Shown: positions 664 through 64,000 of the stretch, piece by piece
Layout: each line of letters opens with the position of its first letter
How positions within the stretch are numbered: position 1 is the first letter of the stretch
Notes under the pieces: model-generated
Told to the model about the DNA's origin: nothing
The model's input: the letters and a program-made list of their open reading frames with translations, nothing else
The model's database searches: none
Made by a program: the position numbers and the translations under genes
Origin: an uncultured Candidatus Altimarinota bacterium
Lineage (GTDB): Bacteria; Patescibacteriota; Gracilibacteria; BD1-5; UBA6164
DNA: 64,000 nucleotides
Assembly (NCBI GenBank): GCA_938015455.1
Contig: CALLPL010000036.1
Coordinates: forward strand, 9,916 to 73,915
Direction: 5' to 3'

Positions 664-674
664 AGTAAAAGTAA

Positions 675-720
675 TCCCTCCCCTGCTCTCGCAGGTACTC
701 CCTTTTACAAAGGGAGAGAA
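675..720. repeat. Intergenic GC-rich hairpin element (ctcccttTTACaagggag core), same family as the in-frame elements
   Basis: tccctcccctgctctcgcaggtactcccttttacaaagggagag. A 7-bp stem ctccctt/aagggag stands out from AT-rich surroundings. Confidence 0.55.
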
Positions 721-1260: not shown

Positions 1261-3402
1261 TTAGCTCATCTCAAATTCGAGTCTGTACCTCGGCATATCA
1301 ACGGATTTTAAAGTAACTGGAACTTCATCTCAAAAATGGAGCTGCTTTTGTGTGGAAGATTGAACGACGCAGTGCTTTTCAGAATCAAACTGATATCCGG
1401 TAAACTCAAAGCTTATGAATCATTCTATGGTGTTTTCGAGTTCTATGAAGAATCCTTTTTCTATCATTCATGATATCTTTCCTGTAAACTGCTCTCCTAC
1501 TTTTTCTGACATATACTTACATGCCATCATATCTCGTACTCGGTACTCCATCTTTTCAGCTCTATCTGAGAGTGAGCTACTCGACATGGCTACCTTTGGG
1601 AGGATCTCTGTATAGTGTTCACGGCGAGCCTGCGATAATCCATTTTTCTGAACCTCTCGACTTCAAACCTCACTCTTGAATTCTCTCTCCTTAGAGGAGA
1701 GAGAGGCTCAATTCGCAGCTTCATTTCTCCTTGAGGAGAAAATTGTATGAGGTTTTGCCTGAGAGTTATTATTTATTATTTCTTTAATTATTCTATGGAT
1801 CTGTAAATCTGGGTATCTACGAATTGGGGAGGTAAAGTGACTATAGTGTTTGATAGCCAGTCCGAAATGCCCAAGGTTCTTGTCGCTATAGCAAGCCTTT
1901 TGTAAGCTCCTGAGTAAAAGCTTTTGAAATGGAGCGAGTTTCGCGTCATCTTTGAGTACTTCTAGAAGTGTTGAAAAATCACTTGGGAATTCACGTGCGT
2001 CCATACTCTCAAGTCTCTTAATAAAAGTATCTACATCCTCTGGGTCTGGCTCTTCATGGACTCTATAGAGAAATGGATATTTTGAAAAGAGTTTTGCTAC
2101 TGATTCATTTGCAAGAACCATACATTCTTCAATGATTTTATATGAATTATATCGTTCGTATCTTTTATATTCTACTGGATTTCATAGATCATCCAGAATA
2201 ATCTTCGTTTCTGGAAAATCAAAATTGAGAGCTCATCTCTCTTTTGTATTCTTTGTAAGTATACCTGTAAGAGACTCTAGGTTTTTAATATTTTTATAGA
2301 GATCCTCAGAAACTACTTCTCAAAACATCAGTTCATCAGATACCCCTATATCTCATGAGAGCATTTCATCTATTTCTTTGTATGTCAGTCTATAGTCAGA
2401 GAGAATTATACTTTCATAGACCTCAGATTTCGTAACTCTTCCAGAAGAAGAAATATGCATCTCACAGGTAAGCGTGAGTTTATCTTCTCAAGGATGTAAG
2501 CTGCACAGTCCGTTAGAGATTTCAGCAGGTAACATCGGAATTACTTGATCACAAAGATAAATACTCGTTCCACGTTTACGGGCCTCTCGATCCAGGTGAG
2601 AATTTTCTGTTGTATAATGCGTGACATCTGCAATATGAACATAGAGTTTCCACCCCCTCTGTCCTTCGGACATCTCCCCCTTATCAAGGGGGAGAATAGA
2701 AATCGCATCATCAAGATCCTTACTTTCTGCTCCATCAATAGTATAAGTCAAAGTATTTCTCAGATCTCTTCTCCCTAAAATATCCTCTGGGTTTATATTT
2801 TTTGAAAATCCATGAACCTGTGACATGACTGAGTCAGAAAAACTCTTTCTCGCTCACATTTCAAAGGCAATCTTATAAATATCTTCTCTTCCCTTTGGTA
2901 AATCATTGAGTGATTCGACTATTCTTCATTCTGGATTTTTTCCTTCCCACTTTATGATTTGTACGGCAACTTCTGATCCATTACTATATCCTCAAATATG
3001 TTTTCCAGGGATGAAAATATCTTTTTGAACTTTCGGGTTATCTGATATGACAAATGCAAACTTTGCTCCTATTTGAAGCTTTCCTACTATGAGCTGCTCT
3101 GATCTTTTGAGAACTTTTGTAATAGTTGCTTCTTCTTTTTCTCTGAAAAATCTTGTGGTAAAAGCAACTTCATCCCCCTCAAAAGCATCAAGCTTTTTAC
3201 TCTCATGGACATAGTATCATTTTTTTTCTCCCTCTGGAGTCACCATATCAACAAAACCAAAGTTTCACTGGCCTTGTTTATAGATACCTATAAGTTCATT
3301 CTCTGTATCTCGTTTTCTCGGAATATTTCTCTTTGGAGTTGAACTGTAAAACGTCTTTTTTTGATGCTTTTTGATGTTTTTCTCTTTCCTCTCTCTTGGC
3401 AT
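1261..3402 (-). CDS. rnr: Ribonuclease R (VacB/RNase II family), 713 aa
   Basis: Continuous only with TGA as sense. N-terminal GQGNFGFVD. RNB motifs DGAESKDLDDAIS, YVHIADVTHY, GTSIYLCDQVIPMLP, LCSLHPGEDKL. C-terminal S1 domain GEQFTGKISGMIEKGFFIELE. TAA at 1261-1263. Confidence 0.92.
1666..1708 (-). repeat. 43-nt palindromic element translated in frame within rnr (ASLSSKEREFKSEV); identical copy at 61821..61863
   Basis: aacctcactcttgaattctctctccttagaggagagagaggct matches 61821-61863 at 43/43. Core hairpin ctctctcctTAgaggagagag. Confidence 0.85.
1724..1741 (-). repeat. Second hairpin unit in rnr (tttctccTTgaggagaaa), read as FSSRRNE
   Basis: Perfect 8-bp inverted repeat, 15 nt from the 43-nt element, inside the linker before the S1 domain. 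Confidence 0.6.
2651..2695 (-). repeat. GC-rich hairpin element in frame inside the rnr RNB domain (ILPLDKGEMSEGQRGW)
   Basis: caccccctctgtccttcggacatctcccccttatcaagggggag. Stems ctccccctt/aagggggag and gtcc-ttcg-gac. Lies between DDAIS and YVHIADV. Confidence 0.65.
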
Positions 3403-3646: not shown

Positions 3647-3762
3647 TTTATTTCTTAACCCCCATACATGCATATATCAAATATAACAAATACAAACACA
3701 ATGGTTGAGAAAAATATTCCTCAACTCTAAATCAAACATCTTATTTTCATAAATTCTTGATT

Positions 3763-4810: not shown

Positions 4811-4826
4811 AATTTTTTACCTCCCA

Positions 4827-4847
4827 ATAAGTGTATATTTTACATTA
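4827..4847. promoter_or_regulatory. Candidate NrtR operator, site C (TAAGTGTA-tattt-TACATTAA)
   Basis: Ends 14 nt before the pncB ATG, in the pncA-pncB spacer. Confidence 0.45.
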
Positions 4848-7039: not shown

Positions 7040-8860
7040 ATGGAAACAACACTTAACAAACAAGGTATCGACGAGTGAGTAGTACTTGCTCAAATACCTG
7101 TTCTGGCAAATAATCCAGATGTGAATGTACAAAACATGATTCAAGTAATAGAAAATACTCAGGCATGAAAACTTATTATTTTTCCTGAAATGTGTGTTCC
7201 AGGGTATATGATAGGTGATGCTTGGCTCAAGGATAGTGCTCTGAATGACTTCCTCTCATATAATGATGACATACTCGCGGCACTTGAACAGAATCAAAAC
7301 TCAGCTATCTGGGGAAATATTGAAACAGACAAAGATAAAAGAAATGAAGACGGAACCACAAGAAAATATAATTCAGCATATATAGCAGAAAATGGGAAAC
7401 TCTTATGAGTCCAAAGAAAAACACTTTTACCAAACTATAGAATGTTTGATGATAAAAGATATTTCTCAAGTCTTTCTCAACTTGCGCTCGAAGAGGAAAG
7501 AGATATTTCTGAGTATCATAAACCTGTTAAAATGGAGATTCTCTGAACTAGCAGACAAGTTTCTACTCTTATTTGTGAAGATATATGGAACATTAATGGA
7601 GATTACCATATAGATCCTATGGAACTCGTTCGAGAATATAAACCAGATCTCATAGCAGTTCTGTCAACATCTCCATATGGTCGAGATAAATCTCAGTTTC
7701 GAGACCAACTCCTTGCTGACAGGAGCAGCGATACAACACTTGCGTATGTAAATCCCATAGGAACTCAAAACATTGGGAAAAATATCCACGCTATGGATGG
7801 AGGAAGTAGTATCTATATAGACTGAAAATTTATACGAGGAATTGCTGACTTTACCAGTGATCAAGTGATAGAAAGTCTCAAACATCCCGGCGAGATCGCT
7901 CAGGCATATAATACTATTGTATATTCTCTCAGAGATTTCTGGGAAAAGCTCTGAAAACCTAAAGTAGTCATTGGGCTCTCTGGATGAATAGATTCATGAG
8001 TCGTTGCTTCTCTCCTCAAAGAAGCTATCTGATCAGAAAATATTGTAGCTGTGAATATGCCGAGCAAGTTTAATAGTAAAACAACCCAAGAACTTGCAAA
8101 GCAAACAGCAGAAAATTTATGAGTAGAGTATAAGATTTTTCCTATTCAGGAAATCGTGGATCATAGAGTTGCTCAAATAGAAGAAGTAAGCTGACAAAAA
8201 ATAAGCTCATTTGAACTAGAGAATATTCAGGCTCGAATCAGAGGCCAAATACTCTCTGATCTCTCAGCAAGATATTGATGATTTCACACAAACAACGGGA
8301 ACAAAGACGAAATTGCTCGCGGATATGCAACACTCTATTGAGATGTTTCATGAGCTATTGCTCCTATTTGAGACTTACATAAGTACCAGGTATTTGAACT
8401 TGTAAACTATATTAACTCATTATCAAATAAGCCTGTCATTCCAAAAAAAATGACTGAAATAAAGCCTTCAGCAGAGCTATCTGAAGAACAAAATCCAGAA
8501 ACAGGATGAGGAGACCCCTTTGATTACGATGTTGTCGGAAAAACTATTAAAGCTCTCTGAGAACAAAAGCTGACTGATACAGACATTTTAGAACTCTATA
8601 TAGAAGGGCAGCTTGAAGAAAAAATCTGACTTAATAAAAAGATCGACGATGTCTTTGATACTCCAGAAATGTTTTTGCAGGATTTTGAGAAACTCTATCT
8701 TGATATACAAGGAACTTATTTCAAAAGAGTACAGGCTCCACCAATTATTACCGTAAACAAAGCCAGTTTCTGATTTGATTATAGGGAGTCACAAAATACA
8801 CCTACTCTCAGTCGATCATATCTCAAACTCAAACAAGAATTCCTATCTTCATGACTATAA
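7040..8860 (+). CDS. nadE: Glutamine-dependent NAD+ synthetase (N-terminal nitrilase/CN-hydrolase domain plus NAD synthase domain)
   Basis: FPEMCVPGY, LICEDIW (nitrilase Glu/Cys). VIGLSGGIDSGVVASL with Gly at TGA 7985-7987 and 7997-7999. NNGNKDEIARGYATLYGD. 606 aa. Confidence 0.9.
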
Positions 8861-34470: not shown

Positions 34471-35343
34471 TTATATAAATAGTAATATAGAAATAATTGA
34501 TAATATTATAACTATTGCTTTCTTCATATTAAAATGTTCTCAGTAAAATACAATAGAGAGAATTATAGGAATAAGAATATAAAAAGAATTAATAGTAAAC
34601 ACTATAGCAAAGTTTCATTCTAATGCTTTTGCGAAGAAAAAATATGATGCTATATGAGTGATTCATAAAACGGTTACAAACAATGTTAAGCCTTTACTAT
34701 TATACGTTTTTCCCTGAATATTTTTCTCATAGAGGTAGGATACCCATGAGAGTAACATCCCTATGGTAAAAGTCATAAAGATAAACAAATCTAGAGAATA
34801 CTCATAAAATGCTACTATCTTTGCACTTGCAACTCCTATCGTCGAAAACAAAACAGTTATTAATAAAAAGATCAGCCCCTGGGACAAATTCTTTTGTATC
34901 TTATTTTCTGTCTTCGTTAAGAGCATGAGAGGAATGCATATACCAATAACTATTCAGAGAGCCTCTTTAAAGGAAAGATATTCTTTAAATACAAATATAC
35001 TGATCATAGTAACCAGTATCGGTCAAAATGTTTTGTATAAGGGAAAGAAGATAACTGTATCAATATTCCTGAGACTCTTTATTCTTGTAAGAACTGATAA
35101 GTTATAAAACAAAGCATTTAAGAAGGCAAAAATACCTACGAATATCAATTCTTCTTTTGGAAATATGATTCAAGTACTTGTAAGATAATATACATATCCT
35201 CACATAAGAATAACTCCTAAGAGGTAGCCTAAAGCGTTCACAAGATTTGGGCTATAATTTCTTTCGATAACGACTTTAAACATAAAGCTATGTACCCCTG
35301 CAGCTAATGCTGAGAGTAAAGCGTAAATAATCCAGGTTTGCAT
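34471..35343 (-). CDS. EamA/DMT-family transporter, paralog 1 of 4
   Basis: 290 aa, about 10 TM segments. MQTWIIYALLSALAAG.., RNIDTVIFFPLYKTFGPI, C-terminus FYGEHFNMKKAIVIILSIISILLFI. Confidence 0.7.
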
Positions 35344-35348
35344 GATTT

Positions 35349-36212
35349 TTAAATAAATAAGAGTATAGAAATAATTGAAAGGAGTATCACTACTCACTTT
35401 TTAAAATTGAAATGTTCTCCATAAAATATTATGGAAAGCATTATTGGGATAAGCAAAGAGAAAGAGTTTATGGTTGTTGCAATAGCAAAGTTTCATTCTA
35501 AGGCTCTAAAGAATGAAAAAGAAGCTCATATAAAAAAGAATCATGAAATAACTGAAAATGTAAATATTCATTCTTCATTATAGAAAACCTTTTTTTTCTG
35601 ACTTTTATAGTATCAATAGGCAGAAAACACTACCCCAAAAAAGAAAGAACAGCTTAAAAACAAATTTATATCAAGGCCAATAGTTACTCAATATTTTTGA
35701 ACTGTTCCTGCTAAAGCAGTCAACACAGAGGTGGCAAGCATAAATATACATCATCTATAGAGATTTCTTTGAATACGATTTTCCGTTTTCGTAATTAAGA
35801 GTAGAGGTATAGATATTCAACATAAAATACCGAGTCACTCCTTAAAGCTCAGGGATTCATTAAAGAATCATAGACTTATGCAGGTTACAATTATTGGTCA
35901 AAAAGCTTTGTAAAGAGGATAAAATATCATTCCATCTATATTTTTCATACTCTCTACACGCGCATGTATGGACATATTATAAAATCCCACAAGAAAGAAT
36001 CCAAGGAGAACTGCTAAGAGAGTTTCTCTTATATCTGATTGAAATCATCCTAAAAACAAAAATACCGAAAATGATATTATGAATCCTATCAAATACATAT
36101 ATAAATTTGCCAGATTTGTATCATAGTTTTTTTCAGCGATCACCTTGAAAGCAAAACTATAAAATCAGGCAAAAAATGCTGAGAGTAATGAGTAAAATAT
36201 CCAAGATTCCAT
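35349..36212 (-). CDS. EamA/DMT-family transporter, paralog 2 of 4
   Basis: 287 aa. MESWIFYSLLSAFFAG.., KNIDGMIFYPLYKAFGPI, FYGEHFNFKKGVVILLSIISILLFI. 5-nt spacer to paralog 1. Confidence 0.7.
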
Positions 36213-36217
36213 AAAAT

Positions 36218-37084
36218 TTAGATAAACAGTAATATAGAAACTATTGAAAGGGCTATAACAATCCCCTTCTTAAGATTGAAGTGTTCTCAATAAAATATTA
36301 TAGAAAGAATAATTGGGATAAGAATAGAAAAAGAATTAATTGTATATGCTACTGCCAAGTTTCCTTGCATAGACATATTATAGGTATAAAAAGCAAAAAA
36401 ATGAATTATTCATGAAACAACAATAAATTTACTAATTCCTTCAGTTTTGTATTTCATCCTCTCTTTTCGATGATGAATCTTGTATCAAAAATATGAAAAT
36501 ATGATTCAAACAAGTGCAGAATACACAATAAATAAATCCATATTCACTAAAAGTACATTTGCAAGTTTTGGAAAAACTGATGCTATAGAAGCCCAAACAG
36601 CAGTGACACAGAGAAAAAAGATTCAGCGAAACAGATTCTTCTGAATTCGTTTTTCGTTTTGATTTATTAGAAGAAGAGGGATAGATATTCCTACAAGGAT
36701 TCAGATTATTTCTAATAATTCTAATGACTCCCTAAAGTATAAAACGCTAATTATAGTAACAATTATTGGCCCAATCGTTTTATATATTGGATAAAAGATA
36801 ACAGTATCTATATTACGAAGAGCATCAACTCGTGATACAACAGATAAATAGTAGAATCAAATATTCCCAAAGGCAATACTAAAAATAAGTCCGTTTTTTC
36901 CTAAGTCCCACTCATAATTTCATACGCATATATACCAAATAAGTGATATGCAAAAAGTAACGGTATAGGAGTAAGTCGTAACAACATACATATCATACTC
37001 TCTCTGAGCAATAACCTTATAAAGGAAATTAAATACTCCCCCAACAATTGCTCACAGGATAGCCCATATTATCCAGCTTTCCAT
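36218..37084 (-). CDS. EamA/DMT-family transporter, paralog 3 of 4
   Basis: 288 aa. MESWIIWAILGAIVGG.., RNIDTVIFYPIYKTIGPI, FYGEHFNLKKGIVIALSIVSILLFI. 5-nt spacer. Confidence 0.7.
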
Positions 37085-37088
37085 AGAT

Positions 37089-37964
37089 TTAAATAAAGAG
37101 TAATATCGAAACTATTGAGAGAGCAATGACTATTCCTTTTTTGAAGTTAAAGTGTTCTCCATAAAACAGTATAGAGAGTATTATTGGAATAAGGATAGAA
37201 AAAGACTGCAGAGTAAATACGATTGCGAGATTTCATGCCATAGCGTGTATAAAAAAGTACATCCCCCCAAAATGTAAAAGTCATAGGATACACCAAAAGT
37301 ATAAGGGAGCTTTTTGCTTCTCTTCTGAGTTTGTGTTATCCTGCTGCTTTTGGAAAAATAGTATCGCTTGAGACAAAATAGTTCCAATTAGAAAACCGTA
37401 CAGTAAAAATGTATCTATATCTAAATTATAAACATGTGCTATCTTTGGCATAGAAGATGCAATCACTGAAACCCCTGCCGTTATAGCTATGAATATAAGT
37501 CATTTAGATAGGTTCTTTTGTATTTTATTTTCTGTTCGTGTTATAAGTAAAAGAGGGACAAAGACTCATACTCATATACCAAGAGCTTCTCGAGGATTTA
37601 GTGATTCTTGAAATAAAAATAAACTTATGAGAGTTATAATAATAGGAGATATTGTTTTATATATAGGATAAAAGATAACAGTATCTATGCTCCTTAAACT
37701 TATTCACCTTGTTATAATTGAGAGAGATAAAAAAGATATATTTATAGTCGTCAGAATTATAAGAAAGGTCGAAGCATTAGATATTACCTCATATAATTTT
37801 CACTGAAATAGTAAAATTCATGAAAATAGTAGGAAACTTATGGCATTTGCATAAAGGTAAAAAAGATTTATGTCGTACTTTTTCTCTACAATTATCTTTA
37901 CCCCAAAATTCGCAAGCCCTACGAGAATTGCAGATAATAGTGCATAAAGTATCCAAAATTCCAT
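37089..37964 (-). CDS. EamA/DMT-family transporter, paralog 4 of 4
   Basis: 291 aa. MEFWILYALLSAILVG.., RSIDTVIFYPIYKTISPI, FYGEHFNFKKGIVIALSIVSILLFI. 4-nt spacer. Confidence 0.7.
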
Positions 37965-44416: not shown

Positions 44417-47400
44417 TTATTTTTTCATTATTTCTTGAGCTATCCTATATTGAAGAAGCTGTAATATTGAAGTAAGCTCTTCATTATCTTGATGCTCTGT
44501 AAGTTTTTCATCAATTCTTGCATAAATTGTATACAGGGAGTCTAATCGCTCAGTATCATCTGGTATAGCACGAAGTTTCGTTATGAAGCTCTGTACCTGA
44601 CGCTTATATTGTGTATCTATATCAAGAATATTTTTCTGATCTGGTTCTACAGGACTTTGTGCGTTTTCTATGTACTTCGCTTTTATGATCCATCGTCCTT
44701 CTACTCATCCAATAGGAGTACAGGTAAAGAGTGTAAGATTCTTCCCTTCTCATGGGGTAAGAACTGATGTATCACTTGCTGGAGTATTGTACGAAGCCTC
44801 TGTTACATACTTGTACTGTGAGTATCATCCTGATGCATTCTTTTCATAGACCCAGACTTCTTCCCCAACATCTAGTTCTATAATCTTTTGGAAGTGTGTC
44901 TTATATCTTCACTCTGAGTCTTTCCAATACGAGCTATGAGCGAAAACTACCTTATTCCCTACTTCACCATATCCTCTCGTACTGGTTCCTGGGTACTCAA
45001 GAGCACCGGTTCTGAGAGCTGGATTAATATTTCCTTCTCGGCCATTAATCATCGTATCAAAATCTTTTGAGTCTGATCCAAATTCATTAATTGGAACCAC
45101 AAGACCATTTGATGGAACTACGATATATTTCTGCGCGTTTCTGTCTTCTTCTACCAGTACTTGTTTCCAATGATTTACATCATTGTTCGTAGATCCTGCA
45201 AGACGGAAAGTATCTGCTGATGGAAGCTCTGTAGCTACTCGTGAGTTTGGCTTCGTTTCTATTCTATCTGAAATTGGAGTCCCGGTTCTTGGAAGTTCTT
45301 TTGGAAGAGCTTTGAGAAGCGATTCTCATTTAATTGTTTCTTCTTGAATTTGTTCCTCAATAAGTGCTTCAAGTATATCTTCATACTCTGCTACTTTCTT
45401 TGTAATCTCAGTATCATATTTTTCTTTGAGTTCTTGAACGTTTACTGAGTTAGTAGAATTTATAGGAGCCGAAGGAGCAGAGTTAAGCAGCGGTGTTGAT
45501 GTTCATAAAGGAGTAATGATCGGAGCAGGAAGAGTTGAAGACTCTAGAGGAGTAATAGTAGGATTACTTCTCGAAGAATGACCTCCTCAACTACCTCAAC
45601 TTGAAGATCATGATATAGTTGGGGCAGCAACATACTCCACTACAGTATAATCATTGCTTGCATCACTATCTGTTGTATTATCTCCATTTGGAGTTTCTAT
45701 TTCTCCCGGGTTAGATATAGGAGAACCTGATCTATCCGTAGCTGTATCTGAAACATCACTTGTAGGTCATGCTACACTTTGAGCGATGACTGTAGCAGTA
45801 TTTTCTACAAATCATGCTATGACATCTGGTTGAAAAAGTGAATAGCTTCCTGTGAAGGTAAGCGTGTCTGTTGCTCCAACTGCAAGCGTTGCAATAGGTC
45901 AACCATTTACTGTTATAAGAGGATCTGTTACTACAATATTTGTAAGATCTATATTTCAAGTATTTACTACCTTAAACGTATAGCTTATTGTTTCTCAAAA
46001 TTCTGCCTTTCAGTCATTATTTTCATCATTAAATACTCAGGATTTATAGAGTTCAATTTGAGGAATCTTTTCTATCAGGTAGCTTGTTGGGTCCTCTGTT
46101 GTATCTCCTGTATTATTTGCATAAACAGCAAGTGGGTTATCAGTTTCTGTAGTATCTGGATTACTCACAGAGCTCGTATCCGGAGCAGTCCCTGTATCTG
46201 AAATATCCTCTACTACTGTTCCATTTGGATCTGTACCACTCACGCTTGCGGTATTTTCTATTCCTCAAAAATTAACATCATCTTGAGTCAATACATATGT
46301 TGCTGAATAGTTTACCGAGTTTGTGTGATCAGGACCTATAACAAGGACTGGAGAACCCACTAATACCATACCTGGAAGTGAAGTATCTGTAAGTGTAACG
46401 TCACTGAGAGTAACATTCCCTGTATTAGTAATCTCGAAATTATAACTTACTGTATCTCCTGCTCAAATGATCCCATCCTCTGTTGTGTCTACTACACTCG
46501 AAATAGATTTGATAAGTCGTATATCTGGATTAGGTGAAATAAGGTAACTTGTCGGATCTTCTGTAGGATCACTTCCATTATTTGGATGTGTATCCAAGGG
46601 ATTGTCTGTCTGAGTTCCATCCGGATTAACTATAGTAGTTCCATCTGGAGTAGTTCCTGTATCTGATGTATCTCCTACTATCATATCATTCGGGTCAGTT
46701 CCTGTCACAATTGCAGTGTTTTCTATTCATCCAGCATCTACATCTGCCTGAGTCAATATATAACTCGCTGTATAATTTGTTGTATTTACGTTATTTGGAG
46801 CCATAGTCGGAACTGGACCACCTACCAGAACAAGTCCTGGGAGTGAAGTATCCATAACCGTAACATCACTGAGTGTAACATTCCCAGTATTTGTAATCTC
46901 AAAATGGTAATTCACTGTATCTCCTACTCAGATAACTCCATCTTCTGTTGTGTCTACTACACTCGAGATAGATTTGATAAGCTCTATATCTGGAATAGGT
47001 CATACAGGTTTTGTAACTTCATCTACTGCATCATCTAATATTCCTCATAATGGTGTCCCAGTTGCTGTAGCAATATTAACAACCTCTCCATCATCTGCTT
47101 CAACTTGAGTTACGGGGATACTTGTACAGCTATATTCCCACTGTTCCAAAGGAGAAAGAATATTATCTGAATTAGCATCCGTGTTTGTATCAAGCGTAGG
47201 TCATGAGGTACATTTTTCATCACTCAAGTTAACGAAAGATATAGGCAGATCTCCTGTATTCGTAAGAATAAAAGTATAATCTAGAGTATCCCCTGCCTTC
47301 ATTGGTGTTGATGTTGTTGCCTTTTCAAGAGTCCAACTGGGTACTCATGTAAAGTATCAGAAGTCTTGATCATTATTATCTACTAAGTCTATAACTACAC

Positions 47401-50400
47401 CATCATCATTTTCTATTTCTATAAGGGTATGGGTTGATGTATGTGGTGTTCCAAGTCCATCTGCATCATAGCTTTGAAATGTGTCTACTGGAAGAGTGCT
47501 AGGATCAACTTGTACTTGATATAATCCTACGGGGAGATTATCAAAGAGATATTCTCCATTTGCATCAGTTTGAACCGTATATGGAACTGCCCCTGTGTCA
47601 GACGCAGAAACTACCATCCCCGTAAGAGGATCCACATATATCGGATCACCTGCTCCATCAAGAAGATTTAATGTCACTCATGAAAATGCTCACTCAGAGC
47701 TATCTTGTATTCAATCAGCATTTTCGTCATTCCATATATAGTTTCCTATACTCCCTAGTGGAGTGTAATTATATCAAAAATCTTGATCTTCATCGTCCTC
47801 TACTCAGATGATATTTCAAACAGCATCTGCTTCAAGATCTAAAGTTGTATCAGAAATATTAGAACTTCCAAGACCATCTGAATCATGGGTCTGTTCAGCT
47901 CATGCAGGAAGAGTACTTGGATCAATAGATATTTGATAGTCTCACTGTGGGAGATTTTCAAAGCTATACTCTCCATTTACATCAGTTGTAGCTGTGTATG
48001 GAACAGCTCCTGGAAAACTCGAGTCCACTATTGCTCCTGTGACAGGATCTACATATATTGGATTACCTGATCCATCCAGAAGATTTACTACTACTCATTC
48101 AATACCTGGTTCTCCTGAATCTTCGATTCCATCTCCATTGAGATCATACCAAATAGTATCTCCAATACTCCCACTTACAACCGTAACACTCACATCATTA
48201 GAAATAACATTTAGAGAAATCTCTTTAATCCTTCCTCAAAATGTATTGGTATATACATCTCATGTTGAAAGGTCTGTAACTTTTCCTTCTGAGTCTATAT
48301 CAGGTGTTCCACCTATATTTCCAAAGGGAGTAAGTTCGAGAGAGACTATCTGTCATCCAGCGTTCGCCGCAATATTTCCTGTGACAAATTTAACAGCTGT
48401 TATATCTTCTGGAACTATAGTTCAACATGTTACGGGAGTCGTAAGACTTGAACATGTTTGCCAGTTAGTTGTTCCCGTTCACTGCGTTCATCCACCTGGA
48501 AGTGTACCTCCATTATCCATATATACCTGGTAACATAAATCTCATGAAGCCGGAGTATATCCATTTGGGAGATTATCAGCACTACAGGGATCTTGAGAGA
48601 TACTTGTAGGATTAACATCTGTTGCATAAAATATCTCTCCATTAGAAGAACTTATATTTGTAAGAGTAAGAGATCCATTAAAAGTAGTTGAAGGATCTCT
48701 CGTAGAGTTTAAACCTGAAGTAATTCCTCCATTACCATCGTCGTGGTATGGGAGAATATCAATAAATTCTCCTTCGCTATAATCCTCTCATCATAAGTTT
48801 TTGTAAACAAGGTCATAAGTAAATGGAGTATTTGTACTCTGAACATTATTAGAAACGGTCTTAAATACATCAAAACCATATTCAGGAAGTATTGTGAGCT
48901 GATATGTCGCACTGGCTGAGTCTGAAAAACCATCTCCATCTTGATCTGCTCAAATATCACCAGTAATCACAGCTGTATTAGTAAAAGACCCGGAAGTACG
49001 AGATGGATCTGCTTGTACACTATATTTTATAAGTGGGAGCTGTTCCCCTGCATCAACACTTCAAAAGTTCCAAATCAAAGGATCATCAAATCATTGATGT
49101 TGAGAACTCGTAATGGTTATATCTGGGCTACTTGCATCATAGTCTGTTCTGTTGAGCCAAGTACTTCCTCCATCTATACTAAACTCTTCACTTCCAGCTA
49201 CATAGTCTGTTCCATTTGGGAGATTATCATTTACAGTTGCTGTATTAATAGTGTTATTCCATAGTCATAAAACTTGAGGAGTGATAATAAAATCTATGAT
49301 ATCCCCTCACCTAATAACCTTTATTCCCTTAGGGGATGTTTCTTTTGCTACTGAGTGATTTGAAGGAACGAGAATATTACGATCTGCAAATGAAGAAGAA
49401 AGACTAAAGTTTACGGCCTCAGGATCATCTACAACAGAAGTATCTAAAGTATTTCTCCAAGTACTAAACTCTGATCCTGGTCCAGTATCAAACCTGTAGG
49501 TCATGTATGACGCAAGGTAGTTATTAGAACCGTATCAGCTTGTTAAACCATCTTGAACCTTAACATTATAGTTTGTGGTGATTCCATAGTGAGTATGTGC
49601 CGGACTTGCAGCTAATGCAGCAGGCTTGTCATAATATGATTCCCATCGAACTTTCGAGATCGCTGATCTAGATCAAGTAACCATATCAGGGTCTTCCCAC
49701 CAATCGACTGTTCCTGTAGTTGGATTTCAATTTTCGTCAACTAGACTTCATGACATATTCATTATTACAACAGAACTATCACCATTAACATCATCATCAC
49801 AAAAGTCTTCTTTGAGTTCAGTGAGGGTCGCATGAGAATCGTTTGAGTATAAATATTTACTAAATGGTGAGGTATCAAAAAATGCCGTAGAAACACCAGG
49901 AAAATAGGCAACTCCATTCGGGTTTGTTGGACCATGATTCCATCAGTATCATAAATCTGCTCGAGGTGCAGGAGATAATCCTATATATTCATATTTCGTT
50001 AGATCAAGTTTTGTACATGTTTGAGATCTAGCACCATCAATGGTTCTGTAATCAAAAACATTATTCATAATGGCTACTGTCTCTCCTGCAGATACATATT
50101 GTTCCTGCTGTAGCTTATGGCTAGTCCCCCAAGGCATTTTAAAGTGACTCATATAAGCAGAATAAGTTCCTGGAGATGAGTAGGTCATTACAAAACTACG
50201 AGTCTGATCCGTAAATGATGGCTCTCAAGATCCGTTATAATTGAGAAGATTATTTTCTCCTACATCTTCTGTTGAAATAGGGTTAAATCATAATATTGAT
50301 CATGAACTATAGGTTCATACTGAGTTTATAACATAGTTCTCACAGCTTGGACAACTTTGATGCCCATCAATATCAGGAGTTCGAGGAAACCATAAATTTA

Positions 50401-51478
50401 TTGCTACTTCTATAAGATTACTATCATTATCAGGATCTCTTACATCAATATTATCTAGATCTATAGTAATATTTGGATCATTTACTCCATCAGGAACAAA
50501 CGAGGGTCCTGTAAAATCCCCTGAAACACTGTCTTGGGTACATGAAACAGTTGCGTTTGCTCCATGATCCCCTATAAGAGAACATCCAGGATCTAGTCCC
50601 CAAGTATATAAGATACCTCCAGTAGAGAGATCTCCTCCACTTCCAGAAGTATTGTTGTTATCATTGTTATCTGTATAGAAGTCCAATAAGTCATAATCAA
50701 CTTCAAAGGTTATTTCATCAGAATCAGCAACCATAGATCCTTTTTCATATGTTGCTTTTATTACATACTCCATAAGTACTCACTGTTCCCCACTTGGTCA
50801 ATCTTTCAAAGGAGGATCATAAACAACATCCACATTTCCATCTCCATCTGTGTCTACATCAGGTACTTTAAGATCTTTTGTAGTATTTACACGAAAATTT
50901 GCTGTTACTATAGTATCTTCACTTGTATCGCTTGCAGCAATCGATCCATCTCACTGAGATGAAACACTCGCGCTCACCCTATCGTCGTTGAGAGTTATCT
51001 CGCTTCCGTCAGCTGATGCTCCAATCGCTCTTGCAGCTGGAAAAAATATCCTATTTGTTCCTTCGATTGCAGGTCATAGATTACAAAAGAGTGTTGTCTT
51101 ATCTATTGAAATAGTTGATATATTCGCAACAATCGCTGGATCTGTCTGACATCATGATGGAATCTCTATCCATGCCTGTTTACTATCAAGCTGAACGGTT
51201 GAAGTCAATTCATTCACATCATTGTCATTTATAGAAACCTCAACCTTATACGTAATAGAATCTTGAAGTCTCGTAACATTATTTTCTTCATCTTCATCAA
51301 ATCCAGCTGTTGCTAGGTCATTTCCATCCCAAGTAACACCAAGGTCAAAAGGTTCTGATCAAGTTTTAAAAACAGAAATCGTAGTATTTACCACAGGAGT
51401 TGCAGCATATATGGCAGAAATAGGAAGAATCCCCCACACAAGAGTTATTAGTAATGTAGAAGATGTTAAACGTTTCAT
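44417..51478 (-). CDS. Giant secreted repeat adhesin (2353 aa) with a C-terminal sortase domain
   Basis: ATG 51478 to TAA 44417, with no TAA/TAG in frame (checked triplet by triplet) and dozens of TGA. Signal peptide [25 protein letters not shown]. SdrD/Cna-B-like units ([22 protein letters not shown]). DUF11-like units ([20 protein letters not shown]). S/G/P linker. Sortase motifs [21 protein letters not shown]. Confidence 0.75.
45990..47010 (-). repeat. Tandem 465-nt (155-aa) coding repeats inside the giant gene
   Basis: tgttgtgtctactacactcga at 46481 recurs at 46946 (offset 465). Protein units ...[21 protein letters not shown]...TGTDPN...EDPTSYLI. Confidence 0.8.
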
Positions 51479-55668: not shown

Positions 55669-56781
55669 ATGTTGAAAAAATTCCCATTCTCCGAACTTCA
55701 TGAATGGTACCAGCAAAATGGTCGTCACGATTTGCCCTGGAGAAACTATAGTTTCGATAAAAAGACACGAGGCTACAGGGTCTGGCTCGCAGAGACCATG
55801 CTCCAACAAACACAGGTAGACAGAGTAAAGTCATACTTTGAGAATATCCTAAAGGCATTCCCAACTGTCGAAGTTCTCGCTGCCTGTTCCTATGAAGATT
55901 TCTTTCCCTACTATAAATGACTGGGTTACTATTCTCGGGCTCGAAATATGCTCGCAGCAGCACAAATGATCGTGGATGACTTTGGCTGAGTATTCCCTGA
56001 CTCCACCAATGATCTCAGGGAGCTTCCAGGAGTAGGACCCTACACCGCAGAAGCTATAAGAGCCTTTGCCTATAATTATCCAACTCTCTCGTTTGATACC
56101 AATCTCGAAAAAATCTTTTCTCGCTATTATTTTGGAAACAAGTTCCAGAAACTCAGCAAAGATAAAAAGTCTCAGATACTAAGGGATTTCGAGAAATCAG
56201 GAGTTTCAGGAAGAGATATCAACAACGCTCTCATGGATTACGGAGCAACGGTATCGCTCAACGCGATCAAAAATATTAACTGGGACAACTATCCCCTCCC
56301 CTCTTCAAAGTTTTACCAGACTCGCTGAGAGCTTGAACCAATTCCCGAAAAAAAGAAATCAAGTTTTCCAAATAAGCAGGCTCATGTGATAGCAATCCTT
56401 CATAAGGATCATAAGATGTATTTTGGAGCTCCACCCCATCCAACTTCCCCTTATCAAGGGGAAGAGCAAGCTGCAGCTTCGTCCCTCCTTACTAAGGAGG
56501 GAATTGAGGGAGGTTTTACCCCCTTCCTCATCTGAAAAAATACCTGAAATCCTCGGGCTATGATCCAGGAATATTTCCTCAAAGAGTATCATCTCGAACT
56601 TTCGGTTCGACCTCCTGAGGTAAAGTCGTATAATAACAAGGATATTCCCTATATGCTATGCTATTGCCAGATACAATCTGGAAACCACGATTTTCAGTCG
56701 TTTGAAGGAATCAAAGTCAGGTGATTTGAGGAGGGATATGTCGAGGAGATGGAGTTTGGAGAAAGTTTGAATTTGTTTTAA
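55669..56781 (+). CDS. mutY: A/G-specific adenine DNA glycosylase (MutY) lacking the usual Fe-S cysteines
   Basis: DLPWR, YRVWLAETMLQQTQV, GLGYYSRARN, LPGVGPYTAEAIRAFAY, NNALMDYGA. No Cys where CX6CX2CX5C is expected. 370 aa. Confidence 0.8.
56437..56530 (+). repeat. Cluster of GC-rich palindromic units translated in frame inside mutY (APPHPTSPYQGEEQAAASSLLTKEGIEGGFTPF)
   Basis: ttccccttatcaaggggaa, aagctgcagctt, tccctccttactaaggaggga. GC-rich against an AT-rich gene. Confidence 0.65.
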
Positions 56782-60965: not shown

Positions 60966-62555
60966 TTATAGTTTAGAGAGAAATTTTTCTTTCAGTTCTT
61001 GTATTTTTTCAATATCTATTTTTTCGAGATTTTTTACTACGAATTGTTGTCGTCATTTTTCAAAGGTTTCTTTGTTATCTGATACGAAGTTCCAGTAGAG
61101 ATAGTTGTAGGGACATGCATTGTCTGTGTATTTTTCTTTTGGATTATATTTGCAAGACTTGCAATAGTCTGACATCTTGTTTATGTAATTTGCGGAAGCA
61201 ACGTAGGGTTTTGTTGCGAGTTTTCCTCCGTCTGCAAATTGGCTCATTCATAATACATTTGGAGTGACTACCCACTCAAAGGCATCGGTATAATATTCAA
61301 AAAACCAATGATTAAGTTCATGAGGATCGAGATTTGTGAGGAGTGCAAAGTTTCAGATAATCATGAGTCTCTGGATATGATGGCTCATATTTTCTGATTG
61401 AACTTGTTTGAGAGTAGTTGAGAGACAATTCATATCAGAATTTTCTGCATTCTTCCAGAAATACTCTGGGAGAGGATTTGTGTGTCCTAGAAAATTTTCT
61501 CAGTAAATATCATCTTTATAGCATTGAAAGAAGTGATACATATATTCTCTCCATCCGAGAACCTGCCGAATAAATCATTCTTTATTATTCATCGCTGTAT
61601 CTGTTTCTTCTACAGCTTTTGCAACTTCTCGAGGAGACAAGAGTCCGTAATTAATAGAACTTGAGAGCAGACTATGATGCACATAGGCATCGTCCTGATA
61701 CATCGCATCTTCCAGTCTCCCAAAATTATCTAAATGATTCTCGAGAAAGTAGTCTAGGAGTTTTAGAGCTTCTTGTCTATTTGTTGGGTATATAAAAACT
61801 CTTCTCGATTCCCCTCACAAAACCTCACTCTTGAATTCTCTCTCCTTAGAGGAGAGAGAGGCTACTTTCTGAGTTTCATTTGTAGATTGTCCCCTCTCCT
61901 TGAGGAGAGGGTTAGGGTGAGGTTTTTTATAATACTCCTCAGCTTCTTTCCAATACTCATTTTTCTCAAGTTCAAAACTCCAGCTTCACTCATGTTTTCG
62001 GTCAAACTTTCTATTTTCTTTATCATAATTCCATTCTCATCACTCGGGTTTTCCTTCCTTCGTCATGAGGATATCCTCTCTCTTCCTCATGAATCTATAA
62101 AAATATTCCATGATGGGAGGCTTTGTATATTGCTTTTTGAAATCATCGTGAGAGAGAAAAAAACTTTCTGTATCTTCTGTAAAAGTTAGAGTAATATTTT
62201 CTTGCTTCAGTCTCTGCTGAATTTTCTGAAAATTTTGAAAGACATAATTTTCTACTGGTTTCACAATAACAAATTCTGAAACACCATGCTGTTTTGCATA
62301 TTTTTGTATTCCAGAAATAAAGCTCTTTTCTATATAAAACTCAGCTATCTTTCAATGATCTTTCAAAGCATCTATAATCTGCTTTCCACCTGCGTAGTCT
62401 ATTATTTTACTGTGAGTATTGAGATTCAACTCTCTTCCCTGAAAAAGTATCTTTCATATATTGTGAATATATAAAAAGTGAGTATAGTCTGTATATAAAT
62501 ACTCTTCTCTGAGTTGATTATATAAGATTATTTGGCATATCGTCGTATCCTGCAT
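60966..62555 (-). CDS. Photolyase-related protein (DPRP / FeS-BCP-like), 529 aa
   Basis: ILYNQL N-terminal domain, FGRLEDAMY, HHIQRLMIIGNF, YINKMSDYCKSCKYNPKEKYTDNACPYNYLYWNF (CxxC-x12-C). Frame scanned. Start uncertain (ATG 62555 or internal). Confidence 0.7.
61821..61863 (-). repeat. Second copy of the 43-nt palindromic element, in frame (ASLSSKEREFKSEV)
   Basis: 43/43 identical to 1666..1708, in the same orientation relative to its host gene. Confidence 0.85.
61889..61922 (-). repeat. Adjacent GC-rich hairpin unit, in frame (PHPNPLLKERGQ)
   Basis: gtcccctctccttgaggagagggttagggtgagg. Stem ccctctcc/ggagaggg. Confidence 0.65.
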
Positions 62556-64000
62556 GAAAGAAAAAATTAATATTGTTTGGTGTAAAAAGAATTTGAGAAT
62601 ACATGATAATCAGATTCTTACAACTTTAGATCCAGAAGTTCCGACTCTTGGGGTTTATTTTTTCGAGCCAAAGATTATGAGTCTTCCTGATTATTCTGAC
62701 TTTCATTTACAGTTTATTTATGAAAGTCTCCTTCTGCTACAAAGATCATTCATGAAACTCTGAATCCCTCTTTTATTGCTCCCGTATAATGCTCTAGAGT
62801 GATTTAAAAAGCTTCAAGAATATTTTGATATTTCTCATATCTATTCACATGAAGAGACGGGAAACTGGGGAACATATCAGCGTGATCTCAGAGTACTCTT
62901 CTATTGTAAGAAATCTGAAATAAAAATCACTGAGTATGGGACAAATGGAGTGGTGAGAAGACTCAAAAGTAGAGATTCTTGGAACAAGATATGGAACGAG
63001 CGAATGATGCAGAAAATTTATTATCCTGTTCAAATTCAAAAACCTGTTATAACTCCTCTCGAGCTCTGCAATATCTCAAAAAATACGAAGAATAAATATA
63101 AGGAATACTTTCTGAAAAACTGAAATAAAAATATACAAAAATGATGAGAATTTACGGGCATAAAAATATTAGAAAATTTTTTAGAGACCAAAAGCTCAAA
63201 ATATATGTACAATATTTCAAAACCATTTGAATCTCAAAGCTGGTGTTCGAGACTCTCTCCATATATCACCTACGGATGTTTATCTCTTAAAATAGTTATT
63301 CAAGCAACAGAAAACAGAAGAACTGAGCTCAGCAAACTCTGAACTGACACAGCCAAGAATCATCGAAAGTCTCTTCAGTACTTTGTATCAAGGCTCCATT
63401 GGCAATCACATTTTATTCAAAAACTTGAGGATGAACCTGAGATGGAGTTTCGAAATCTCAATAAAGACTTTGATGCAATTCGTCAGGAAATAGATGCTCA
63501 GCTGATTGAAAAAGTATTTACGAGTAGATCGGGAATCCCCTATATCGACGCGCTCATAAGACAACTTCAGCAAACTGGTTGGTGTAACTTTCGATCCAGA
63601 GCTATACTTGTGAGTTTCCTCTGTAATACCTGTATGCAGCCTTGGCAAGCTATTGCTCCGAGAATTGCGCAGCTCTTTACAGATTACGAGCCAGGAATTC
63701 ACTATCCTCAGTTTCAGATGCAAGCTGGTACTACTGGAATAAATACCATTAGGATTTATAATCCTGTGTATAACGGCAAACAAAAAGATCCTGAGTGAAG
63801 GTTTATATATACCTTTCTCCCTGAACTCAAATCTGTTCCAGTGAAATATATTCATGAACCTCATCTATGGGAAGGGTTTAAAGACTTAGGATATCCTGAA
63901 CCTCTTGTAGATATCAAATCAGCCAATAAAATTGCGAAAGATCTCCTCTGGACTACCAAGTGAAATATCCTCAAATCTGATAAAGAAAAAATAGTAAAAA
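62554..64000 (+). CDS. Cryptochrome/photolyase family protein (FAD-binding), 3' end beyond the window
   Basis: [90 protein letters not shown]. Confidence 0.8.

Follow-up and report, generated by a model that had tools for sequence, protein, structure and literature searches.

The BoxC/PIT repeat has been on record since the 1990s. BoxC/PIT/TM repeats are found in E. coli, in cyanobacteria and in more than 260 other genomes (Hoyne et al. 2000; Holder et al. 2015, PMC4666352). Triplex formation was shown in vitro by Holder et al., by CD/NMR for TM_ECO; earlier in vivo tests of PIT, quoted in the same paper, revealed no promoter, terminator or polymerase-blocking effect, and the paper makes no mention of ycjD, of any DUF or of an endonuclease (PMC4666352). 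REP dimers, when intragenic, encode 20-30 aa, often in replication or repair genes (PMC3733652). The Vsr/DUF559 clade has also been described (PMC3424549).

We analysed a stretch of 64,000 nucleotides (hereafter the window) from a Gracilibacteria genome, in which an earlier note had pointed to a composite insertion of two palindromic units within a photolyase-related gene. Our main reading, to which we give a probability of about 0.7, is that this insertion is an ORF-less BoxC/PIT pair in a translated linker, and that it is one of a family of small selfish elements whose full-length members carry DUF559. The features concerned are collected in Table 1.

Table 1. Coordinates of the photolyase-family gene, of its insertion and of related modules (window positions)
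Feature	Position	Strand	Composition or location	Scores and basis
Host gene, FeS-BCP / (6-4) photolyase family (Pfam DPRP)	60966..62555	(-)	529 aa, TGA = Gly	PF04244, E 4e-26; start and stop codons verified
Inserted element, ORF-less inverted pair of BoxC/PIT-type modules	61819..61926	(-)	108 nt terminus to terminus	covariance model, 116.7 bits
Right module (gene sense)	61822..61865	(-)	GTAGCC + hairpin TCTCTCTCCT-CTA-AGGAGAGAGA + loop ATTCA + third block AGAGTGAGGT	10/10 allowed triplets
AT-rich variable spacer between modules	61866..61888	(-)	position of the DUF559 ORF in full-length relatives	alignment and full-length L004 element
Left module (gene sense)	61889..61926	(+)	hairpin CCCTCTCCT-TG-AGGAGAGGG + loop TTA + third block GGGTGAGGT	9/9 allowed triplets
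Decayed tandem duplicate of the element terminus	61805..61818	(-)	GTGAGGGGAATCGA	compared with L012 and L010
Second pair, same family	1665..1756	(-)	in frame in RNase R gene (1264-3402, minus), between RNB and S1; modules 1667-1704 and 1724-1753	covariance model, 91.7 bits; Pfam RNB/S1 in host
Solo module	2652..2695	(-)	inside RNB region of RNase R gene; motif strand = gene strand; translation ..ILPLDKGEMSEGQRGW..	stem of 10, 9 triplets
Third, diverged pair	56429..56519	(+)	in frame in MutY-like gene (55669-56778, plus); modules 56433-56464 and 56482-56515	covariance model, 56.5 bits; Pfam HhH-GPD in host
Solo module, second module family	673..720	(+)	intergenic; AATCCCTCCCC..GGTAC-TCCCTTTnnnnAAAGGGA	

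Homologues of the host protein in the PDB are 8ijy, 4dja (PhrB) and 3zxs (CryB), with E values of 1e-82 to 6e-90. Only 31% of the window is coding in table 11 and its coding density is complete once TGA is sense; moreover, a TGA-TGA pair matches the conserved GG of ..P.GG.WN[YF]D.. in the solved homologues. Both agree with TGA read as glycine. Under that reading the minus-strand translation runs EAEEYYKK-PHPNPLLKERGQSTNETQKVASLSSKEREFKSEVLGGES-RRVFIYPTNRQEALKLL and contains neither TAA nor TAG, consistent with the stop-free frame reported earlier. The two sequences quoted in the earlier note are likewise where it had placed them (61889-61922, gtcccctctccttgaggagagggttagggtgagg; a 43-mer at 61821-61863).

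The extra segment amounts to 39 aa (61806-61922) in the interdomain linker. Two conserved anchors are 95 aa apart in the window protein, 56 aa apart in most Gracilibacteria homologues and 65 aa apart outside Gracilibacteria (range 56-67; 69 homologues from other phyla). The proposed insertion relative to the family is thus borne out, and an equally long segment in unrelated phyla, which the earlier note had named as the observation that would speak against it, was seen at the linker in none of the 69 homologues measured. This out-group length control came from a metagenome scan with the DPRP alignment and degenerate patterns, which returned 600 mostly distant homologues (35-40% identity) from other phyla and was useless for gathering Gracilibacteria sites. 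In tblastn alignments, 29-39 residues of distant homologues were placed opposite the insert; anchor distances settled that this is alignment spreading. In the closest homologue (P0002, locus L002) the site is empty. The HMMER alignment of the host protein to solved structures is interrupted exactly at the linker, and the AlphaFold model of the orthologue P0003 has pLDDT values of 47-61 across the insertion and above 90 on either side. Local slippage or duplication as the origin is excluded by copies in other genes and genomes, and an assembly artefact by recurrence in independent MAGs. It is nearly certain that the segment is an inserted repeat.

The two palindromic units described in the note are indeed GC-rich hairpin units, but together they form a single element, with one unit at its left end and the other, inverted, at its right. 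This follows from its complementary termini (AAAACCTCAC / GTGAGGTTTT), from the homology to the RNase R copy, which runs terminus to terminus, and from the consensus fold, in which an outer stem encloses two hairpins, with compensatory changes in 14 of 24 pairs. The phr segment itself folds with z = -3.3, a strong GC-rich structure within an AT-rich gene, and the stem pattern was observed 4 times in the window for 0.31 expected. Beside the element, the decayed copy of its terminus explains the additional residues ..GGESR..; in L012 the terminus is duplicated intact (GAGGAATTGAGGTGAGGTTTTGTG). The segment is presumably translated with its host: in silico the whole element is part of the extra linker.

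"Palindromic" also leaves out a part of each unit, as a third block mirrors the purine arm of the hairpin, which is the BoxC/PIT/TM triplex motif. Stems of 8-10 bp with one pure pyrimidine and one pure purine arm were present in all seven motifs of the window. The third block carries allowed triplets (G.G:C, A.A:T, T.A:T) at 8-10 of 8-10 positions in the six paired modules, and at 9 in the solo. This triplet rule holds across the six despite their differing arm sequences, and is matched by shuffles only 0-33 times in 2000. Furthermore, 61892-61922 lacks one C:G pair in each of the three blocks relative to E. coli TM_ECO no. 2 and otherwise matches it, which makes the left module near-identical to that BoxC/TM copy (CCCTCTCCTTGAGGAGAGGGTTAGGGTGAGG in the window, CCCTCTCCCTTGAGGGAGAGGGTTAGGGTGAGGGT in E. 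coli). The second loops are TTA (type A) in the left phr module, ATTCA in the right modules of phr and rnr, ATTG in the left module of RNase R, ATTG and TTG in MutY and 12 nt long in the solo, variants of the published TTA (type A) and CCG (type B). By sequence, the modules are of the known BoxC/PIT/"TM" intrastrand-triplex repeat type.

A generic scan of the window for a hairpin with a mirror block returned exactly seven motifs (0.05 in shuffles), all in coding sequence: the pairs in RNase R, MutY and the photolyase-family gene, and one solo in RNase R. Relatives of the segment in rnr and mutY, with the frame kept, had been announced in the note, and are confirmed. The 44 nt at 61820-61863 recur exactly at 1665-1708 in RNase R (BLAST E 3e-20); these two right modules are identical (44/44), whereas the two left modules differ. 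The note's view that the units are modular and combine differently in rnr, mutY and phr holds in so far as solo modules exist, here at 2652-2695 and in relatives at L004 and L010; all three pairs, however, have the same plan of module, spacer and inverted module, with diverged sequences. The module of the second family neighbours a minus-strand oxidoreductase-like gene, immediately upstream of its start (~662), and is of the same sequence type as two inverted modules around a free-standing DUF559 gene in L013.

Related copies are present in many unrelated genes of other genomes. Exact 19-mer matches were found 12 times in 185,579 species genomes, 9 of them in Gracilibacteria, and further model matches in the fetched loci were mostly inside long TGA-sense ORFs. 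The host genes in relatives encode Fmt, PriA, an RsmE-like protein, a class I aaRS (two copies), UPF0489 and a nucleotidyltransferase-like protein. Paired copies of 92-108 nt occur in DPRP, RNase R and MutY and, in relatives, in fmt, priA, the RsmE-like gene and the aaRS. The copies are found in at least two frames, in both orientations and also in intergenic DNA, and in the orthologous genes of L007 and L014 the element occupies a shared site but points in opposite directions. A profile search with the element-encoded peptide returned four short fragments only.

On the DPRP tree, filled sites have a patchy distribution. Right modules from different Gracilibacteria genomes share 92-98% identity; the host genes of these genomes are 74-79% identical (third codon positions, 52-61%). 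In L003 the phr and mutY copies are 0.90 similar to each other, and each is 0.63-0.71 similar to the window copy at the orthologous site. Copy number is low, with three pairs in 64 kb. Orthologous MutY copies are present in L002 and L003 (MutY alignment); given that this copy is common to three genomes, many copies may be old and immobile. At the foot of the 11 aligned right modules, seven have GTAG and the rest GCAG, GAAG, TGAG or GTTG. Target-site duplications, another point raised in the note, were seen beside none of the copies, the comparison of filled with empty sites covering phr and a second MutY insert, and the compared sites yielded no clean recent filled/empty pair that would define the element ends.

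Copies that enclose a nuclease gene link the modules to DUF559. In the fmt gene of L004, a left module, a complete DUF559 domain (E 2.9e-27) and a right module follow each other in frame, and this full-length element shares both modules and the GCTACA / ATGTAGCC junctions with the short copies. In the priA copy (L010), the DUF559 region persists as its first ~43 aa. The short copies thus have termini in common with a longer coding element and are joined to it by a deletion intermediate, as is typical of MITE-type derivatives, although the target-site duplications that MITEs would also be expected to have were not seen. In L013, the DUF559 gene stands free between inverted modules of the second family; at the DNA level, flanking modules were also found in a standard-code RecG gene and in a free-standing DUF559 gene. 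Among the best 150 DUF559 relatives returned by an exhaustive search, about 30 are long host proteins in which DUF559 is an internal domain, and in 27 of the 30 the hairpin peptide signature flanks that domain (19.9 per 1000 aa, versus 2.2 and 0.54 in controls). A word-indexed search with the DUF559 segment of L004 gave 9 matches only.

The association extends to E. coli, where ycjD (DUF559) ends in a decayed module and BoxC copy no. 9 lies 168 nt downstream; there are 23 BoxC copies and a single ycjD. We considered E. coli genomes without ycjD as a clean empty site and discarded them, as the spot holds another gene (an MFS transporter). No DUF559 gene was found in the 64-kb window. What appears to be new is that related Gracilibacteria carry in-frame copies within their genes, including full-length versions with a DUF559 (Vsr-like) ORF between the same two modules, that many bacterial proteins have an internal DUF559 domain flanked by such hairpins, and that ycjD adjoins a BoxC copy. 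The DUF559 nuclease would thus be a candidate for spreading the repeat.

A mechanism may be suggested from these data. Full-length members have a single ORF for a DUF559 (Vsr-like PD-(D/E)XK) nuclease between the same inverted modules, and the window pair would be a deletion derivative of such an element or a non-autonomous partner. A break made by the nuclease at or near a module, repaired by copying another copy, could account for spread or homogenisation; such a route would leave no target-site duplication. In the window the ribosome would read through the pair as a probably disordered stretch of ~39 aa, rich in Pro/Ser/Leu and Gly/Glu/Lys/Arg. The insert is probably tolerated because it lies at a variable linker position, because its pure-pyrimidine and pure-purine arms are stop-free in any frame and on either strand, and because TGA is sense. 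The reading frame is preserved in all cases, as the note had claimed, but this largely follows from the stop-free arms and the sense TGA. Simple transposition of whole elements does not explain why the window has identical right and differing left modules. This speaks against the main reading, as do the lack of a DUF559 gene in the window, the low copy number, the possible age of the shared MutY copy, the missing target-site duplications and clean filled/empty pairs, and the opposite internal arrangement of E. coli BoxC pairs.

A ~110-aa nuclease is no conventional transposase, and DUF559 could equally be a homing-type gene directed at the centre of pairs that were already there. In the full form of this alternative, which we regard as unlikely, the pairs are the primary repeat, spreading independently or maintained by the host, and DUF559 is a homing-endonuclease-like invader of their palindromic centre (GGCTACA...TGTAGCC). 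The window pair would then be an unoccupied homing site, with modules dispersed by another agent, for example a RAYT-type enzyme or replication slippage. The ORF-adjacent junctions GCTACA / TGTAGC do form an inverted repeat, the kind of site that a dimeric nuclease would be expected to use, but L010, where part of the DUF559 coding region survives, is clearly an intermediate produced by internal deletion. Similarly, Vsr-like folds include the proven homing endonuclease I-Bth0305I (PMC3239194), the GTAG tag recalls RAYT-mobilised REPs (PMC3733652) and the BoxC/ycjD ratio in E. coli fits independent modules, whereas the module-DUF559-module layout in two unrelated module families argues for an element that includes its nuclease, and no RAYT gene was noticed among the features identified.

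It is considerably less probable that the motif is not selfish and that the host retains it because it serves a structural or regulatory function, for instance as a protein-binding site or as a triplex or hairpin at which replication, transcription or translation pauses between protein domains. The three-way covariation of both arms and third block, the compensatory changes in the hairpins, a right module far more conserved than the host gene and the location of copies between domains of DNA/RNA-metabolism enzymes could all reflect such a role. These have to be weighed against the occurrence of the same element in unrelated genes, in two frames, in both orientations and in intergenic DNA, against sites that are filled or empty in close relatives, so that the element is dispensable, and against the physical link to a nuclease ORF. 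The triplexes formed in vitro (PMC4666352) are consistent with a role, but PIT had none of the effects looked for in vivo, as quoted in the same paper. Finally, the strong GC-rich structure inside an AT-rich gene might suggest that the segment is absent from the mature protein, either excised from the RNA or passed over by the ribosome, as with the GC-rich bypass inserts of some mitochondrial genes, but this is highly improbable given a net length that is a multiple of three, a frame open in every coding copy, orthologous copies that drift through in-frame changes only, no match to an Rfam intron family and full-length relatives in which the host frame runs on through a folded DUF559 domain.

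The selfish-element reading can be extended, tentatively and at slightly worse than even odds, to BoxC/PIT as a whole: the repeats would be the ends of widespread, unrecognised, tiny selfish elements whose sole gene is a DUF559 (Vsr-like) nuclease, inserted into protein genes and translated as linker-nuclease-linker or, without the ORF, as linker alone, which is possible because the pyrimidine/purine arms are stop-free in every frame. If true, DUF559 proteins, E. coli YcjD among them, would gain a role, and so would BoxC, whose repeats have been orphans since the 1990s. With palindromic units that are BoxC/PIT and tied to DUF559, the spread of BoxC and the role of YcjD/DUF559 become a single question. 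Selfish DNA within protein genes, best known from Rickettsia, would also occur in tiny, gene-dense CPR genomes, under a simple tolerance rule of pure-pyrimidine/purine arms, linker position and TGA read as Gly. For annotation, such inserts would give lineage-specific disordered segments and domain insertions that mimic novel protein features. Triplex-prone DNA in repair and RNA-decay genes may also be a source of local instability.

How does the element compare with described systems? Like the Rickettsia palindromic elements (RPEs; Ogata et al. 2000, 2002; PMC10969869), palindromes of ~100-150 bp lying in frame in many unrelated housekeeping genes of a small genome, it is apparently translated and tolerated at loops. 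It differs in host phylum and design and probably in sequence: RPEs show no evidence of pure pyrimidine/purine arms or of a mirror third block, and no protein gene is known to accompany them. It is thus best described, by analogy, as an RPE counterpart and no member of that class, set apart by its host (Gracilibacteria). With REP/REPIN-RAYT systems (Di Nocera et al. 2013, PMC3733652) it shares inverted dimers of 20-40-nt hairpins, there sometimes GTAG-tagged, and a nuclease gene, presumably the mobilising enzyme, between two inverted units. Here, however, the flanked gene encodes a DUF559 PD-(D/E)XK protein and not a Y1 (HUH) transposase, the modules have a mirror third block and the GTAG tag is only partly conserved (7/11). 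An extragenic location would be expected of REPs, whereas long ORFs contain 7/7 motifs of the window and the majority of the copies in the fetched loci.

Vsr-like (EDxHD) homing endonucleases such as I-Bth0305I and the "fractured gene" endonucleases (PMC3239194, PMC2677866) belong to the same nuclease superfamily and are also selfish genes within host genes at recurrent sites. Those, however, ride group I introns or split inteins and do not stay in the product; the present element has no splicing component, and the ORF or its ORF-less remnant stays in frame with a hairpin linker on either side. The consensus of the whalefall-1 RNA motif (Rfam RF01762; Weinberg et al. 2010, PMC2864571), GUAUCuCuCCUuGGGGaGaGA..AGgGuGAGGAC, has the same hairpin and GGGTGAGG block, but was proposed as a non-coding RNA and has a 24-nt insert between hairpin and tail. 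Given this insert and scores for both modules (24.7 and 19.7 bits) below the gathering score of 37, membership was ruled out; across the window and the loci, Rfam gave no match at the gathering score, only sub-threshold whalefall-1 and spurious miRNA hairpins.

The closest likeness is to BoxC/PIT/TM: a pyrimidine arm, a loop, a purine arm, a short loop (TTA in the left module of the window) and a mirror purine block with one T, often as inverted pairs and at variable loci in both. Published copies are described as intergenic, whereas all seven in the window are in frame within coding sequence. The third blocks face outward in the window, as terminal inverted repeats, and inward in the E. coli hrpB-mrcB pair, and the ATTCA second loop of the right module is novel relative to the BoxC/PIT/TM repeats described so far.

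The earlier note had described 61821-61922 as an insertion of about 40 residues made of two palindromic units in a photolyase-related gene, and both sequences that it quoted were found at these positions. Table-11 open reading frames of the window are cut up at TGA, with a coding density of 31% that becomes complete once TGA is read as sense. In the host DPRP gene, a double TGA (62037-62042) faces the conserved Gly-Gly of ..P.GG.WN[YF]D.ENR.. in the alignment with solved homologues, and therefore TGA stands for glycine (code 25, Gracilibacteria/SR1); in many database homologues these positions were translated as Trp. The closest relatives are Candidatus Gracilibacteria MAGs. Against the PDB, the host protein matches FeS-BCP/(6-4) photolyases (8ijy, PhrB 4dja, CryB 3zxs; E 1e-82 to 6e-90). 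The divergent arrangement with a second photolyase-family gene is also seen in three related loci (L001-L003), where the called neighbour matches PF03441 (FAD_binding_7). Several C-terminal cysteines of the window protein are lost in the clade of homologues P0003 and P0004 (..YYKNS.HN..).

Most Gracilibacteria homologues read EAEEYY-[DNQ]F[EK]S[KQ]-F.YPTN, and in a 24-homologue alignment the window protein is about 39 residues longer at that point. The extra peptide, PHPNPLLKERGQSTNETQKVASLSSKEREFKSEVLGGES, translates without a stop. Because tblastn gave a misleading spread of residues from distant homologues across the gap, seemingly opposite the insert, we measured instead the distance between the conserved anchors N[YF]D..NR and FG..EDAM. 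It was 56 aa in most Gracilibacteria homologues, 65 aa (range 56-67) in 69 homologues from other phyla, none of which thus carries an equivalent-length segment, and 95 aa in the window protein. The HMMER alignment to solved structures is interrupted in the interdomain linker, at query 184/253 versus chain 181/220. In the AlphaFold model of P0003, an orthologue with the same element (mean pLDDT 88), residues 211-250 score 47-61, with confident helix on either side. In the Gracilibacteria homologues P0015, P0017, P0026 and P0028 (alignment A2, columns ~283-370), the same linker holds other inserts, short or long, whose peptides are of hairpin type (LTPSPSP.RRGE, PPSLPEGK..).

At the DNA level, 44 nt of the segment (61820-61863) have an exact second copy at 1665-1708 (E 3e-20), the stem pattern occurs four times versus 0.31 expected, and the fold is more stable than shuffles (z = -3.3). 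The termini, AAAACCTCAC (61819-61828) and GTGAGGTTTT (61917-61926), are complementary, and homology to the RNase R copy extends from terminus to terminus. Eleven copies from the window and related genomes align as terminus, hairpin A, variable AT-rich spacer, (GTAG)CC, hairpin B and ATTCAAGAGTGAGGTTT, the right half being approximately the reverse complement of the left. The RNAalifold consensus contains an outer stem and two hairpins, with compensatory changes in 14 of 24 pairs. A covariance model found three full copies in the window, in phr, RNase R and MutY, all in sense orientation to the host gene and with this same architecture. Both palindromic units are real, but they belong to one element and are not loose; that they combine differently in rnr, mutY and the photolyase gene finds no support. 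Their modularity holds for solo modules, found in the window and in the related loci L004 and L010, but not for the paired copies, which share one architecture.

Repeat elements and genes in the window, related loci and E. coli K-12
Feature	Position	Strand	Remarks
phr element	61819-61926	minus	in DPRP gene
left module of phr element	61889-61926
spacer of phr element	61866-61888		AT-rich
right module of phr element	61822-61865
RNase R copy	1657-1761
MutY copy	56425-56524
solo module	2652-2695
solo second-family module	673-720		AATCCCTCCCC..GGTACTCCCTTTnnnnAAAGGGAG; directly upstream of oxidoreductase-like gene start
host gene	62555 to 60966	minus	529 aa; Pfam DPRP match
second photolyase-family gene	62554-63999	plus	begins 2 nt inside opposite-strand DPRP start codon; continues past window end
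four tandem paralogous genes	34474-37964	minus	~290 aa each; membrane proteins, common ending FYGEHFN.KKG.VI.LSI.SILLFI
single ORF	44420-51478	minus	~2350 aa, 7 kb; apparent N-terminal signal or anchor
L002, mutY gene	7262-8452
L007, copy in nucleotidyltransferase-like gene	3113-3224
L014, copy in nucleotidyltransferase-like gene	4711-4830
L013, free-standing DUF559 gene	3538-3762		flanked by inverted second-family modules
L013, ORF-less second-family pair	2015-2138
L099, E. coli K-12 ycjD region	NC_000913.3 1351204-1351830

The "TM" motif of E. coli, described by Holder et al. 2015 (PMC4666352), is identical with BoxC and with the PIT elements of Hoyne et al. 2000. It is defined by a third block, a mirror of the hairpin's purine arm, so that G.G:C, A.A:T and T.A:T triplets are possible (PMC4666352). 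E. coli copy no. 2 reads CCCTCTCCCTTGAGGGAGAGGGTTAGGGTGAGGGT (PMC4666352); its window counterpart (61892-61922) reads CCCTCTCCTTGAGGAGAGGGTTAGGGTGAGG. In each of the six modules that form the three window pairs, the triplet rule holds over 8-10 consecutive positions despite differing arms (for example AGGAGAGAGA/AGAGTGAGGT, AGGAGAGGG/GGGTGAGGT and AAGGAGGGA/AGGGAGGTT), a match that shuffles reach 0-33 times in 2000; the two arms and the third block show three-way covariation. What looks like a terminal inverted repeat is thus the motif's third strand. A generic motif scan of the 64 kb returned exactly seven BoxC/PIT motifs versus 0.05 expected, all seven within coding sequence. We consider it settled that the segment is an inserted pair of BoxC type and belongs to a dispersed family.

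The earlier note had also held that the reading frame is always preserved. The frame is indeed open; however, arms made of only C/T or only A/G are free of TAA, TAG and TGA on either strand, and stops are possible only at loops and spacer. Frame preservation is thus part design and part survivorship. In translation, the pyrimidine arms give Pro, Ser, Leu or Phe and the purine arms Gly, Glu, Lys or Arg, jointly making up a flexible linker. At least two frames are in use among the copies in relatives (..ASLSSKEREFKSEV and ..SLSLLGGERIQEGG); in the second, TGA codons within the element itself are read as Gly. One copy is antisense to its host gene. Conservation of frame and length suggests that the segment is translated.

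The exact 19-mer of the right module had 12 matches in 185,579 species genomes, nine in Gracilibacteria MAGs and three by chance, and the covariance model detected about a dozen further copies in ~100 kb of fetched loci. Host genes in relatives include fmt, priA, an RsmE-like methyltransferase, a class I aaRS (two copies), UPF0489 and a nucleotidyltransferase-like gene. In orthologues of the latter from two Gracilibacteria MAGs (L007 and L014), elements occupy the same protein position in opposite orientations, reflecting either inversion in place or separate insertions at a hot spot. Filled sites are patchy in the DPRP protein tree: P0002, sister of the window protein, is empty, and P0003 is filled with the window's junction yet lies among empty relatives. 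The interdomain linker of Gracilibacteria DPRP proteins is a recurrent landing or survival site. Right modules are 92-98% identical between genomes versus 74-79% for host genes (52-61% at third codon positions). Within the window, the phr and rnr right modules are identical (44/44) and the left modules (61892-61926 versus 1724-1756) clearly diverged. Whole-element transposition does not explain this asymmetry, which suggests gene conversion at the level of modules or a stronger constraint on the right one. Lineage-specific termini (AGCCCTCA..TGAGGGCT) are common to the phr and mutY copies of L003, which are 0.90 identical, versus just 0.63-0.71 between each and the window copy at the orthologous site. 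The patchy sites, the conserved right modules and the likeness of the L003 copies point to re-insertion or gene conversion, not passive inheritance. Target-site duplication, raised by the earlier note, was looked for and none was found. The L002 mutY gene carries a 66-nt decayed hairpin insert, YYNNPLSLSYQGKKSSFPDKGR, after ..DFEK, likewise without target-site duplication; this second MutY site is empty in the window (~56196) and in L003.

Inside fmt of L004, a left and a right module bracket a complete DUF559/Vsr-like nuclease domain (PF04480, E 2.9e-27), all in frame; the modules are inverted repeats of each other over ~52 nt. The L010 priA copy is an intermediate in which ~43 aa from the start of the DUF559 region remain, and short elements have the same inner junctions (GCTACA.. 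/ ..ATGTAGCC) as full-length L004. In L013, inverted modules of a second sequence family enclose a DUF559 gene, and an ORF-less pair of that family is present as well. This architecture suggests that DUF559 may mobilise or homogenise the modules; the main alternative is a homing-type gene aimed at the centre of pre-existing pairs. The 64-kb window holds no DUF559 gene. The end of its solo second-family module provides GGAGG 14 nt ahead of the ATG of the oxidoreductase-like gene.

An exhaustive search with a DUF559-relative query gave 21,838 representative matches. Among the best 150, about 30 are long host proteins in which the DUF559 domain is internal, including RecG, RNase H, TsaD, UvrC, CCA-adding enzyme and many restriction-modification subunits. 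The pyrimidine-to-purine hairpin peptide signature reaches 19.9 per 1000 aa within 60 aa of internal DUF559 domains, versus 2.2 in the rest of those proteins and 0.54 in 120 DPRP homologues, and is present in 27 of 30 long and 28 of 52 short DUF559 proteins. At the DNA level, a standard-code RecG gene and a free-standing DUF559 gene have CCCTCACCCC-TA-CCCCTCTCCC...GGGAGAGGGG modules on both flanks. The 3' end of E. coli K-12 ycjD (DUF559) lies within a decayed module, 168 nt upstream of BoxC copy no. 9. The ycjD stop TGA sits in the loop of this BoxC-like hairpin, followed by a partial duplication of the 3' coding end and then copy no. 9; a perfect hairpin with a 16-bp stem (CACCTCATTCTGACAA..TTGTCAGAATGAGGTG) precedes it. 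ycjD is found in 3378 of 5426 complete E. coli genomes, the remainder having an MFS transporter gene at that spot. The BoxC paper (PMC4666352) mentions neither ycjD nor any endonuclease, and, judging by titles and abstracts, none of the 25 DUF559-mentioning papers in the collection searched appears to regard it as a mobile-element nuclease.

Third blocks face outward in the window pairs, in contrast to the inward-facing blocks of the E. coli hrpB-mrcB BoxC pair. Rfam Whalefall-1 RNA gives matches below its gathering score of 37 at 61821-61860 (minus; 19.7 bits) and 61890-61924 (plus; 24.7 bits), and its consensus has a hairpin with a GGGUGAGG tail, as do the phr modules; this "environmental ncRNA" and BoxC-type modules may be related. 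What could be new is the DUF559 association, which can be tested directly. BoxC/PIT and intragenic palindromic repeats are both already known, the latter as RPEs (PMC10969869) and as intragenic REP dimers, which code for 20-30 aa and often lie within repair genes (PMC3733652); the finding is therefore a variation on known repeats, namely BoxC pairs that lie in frame in a CPR genome with code 25.
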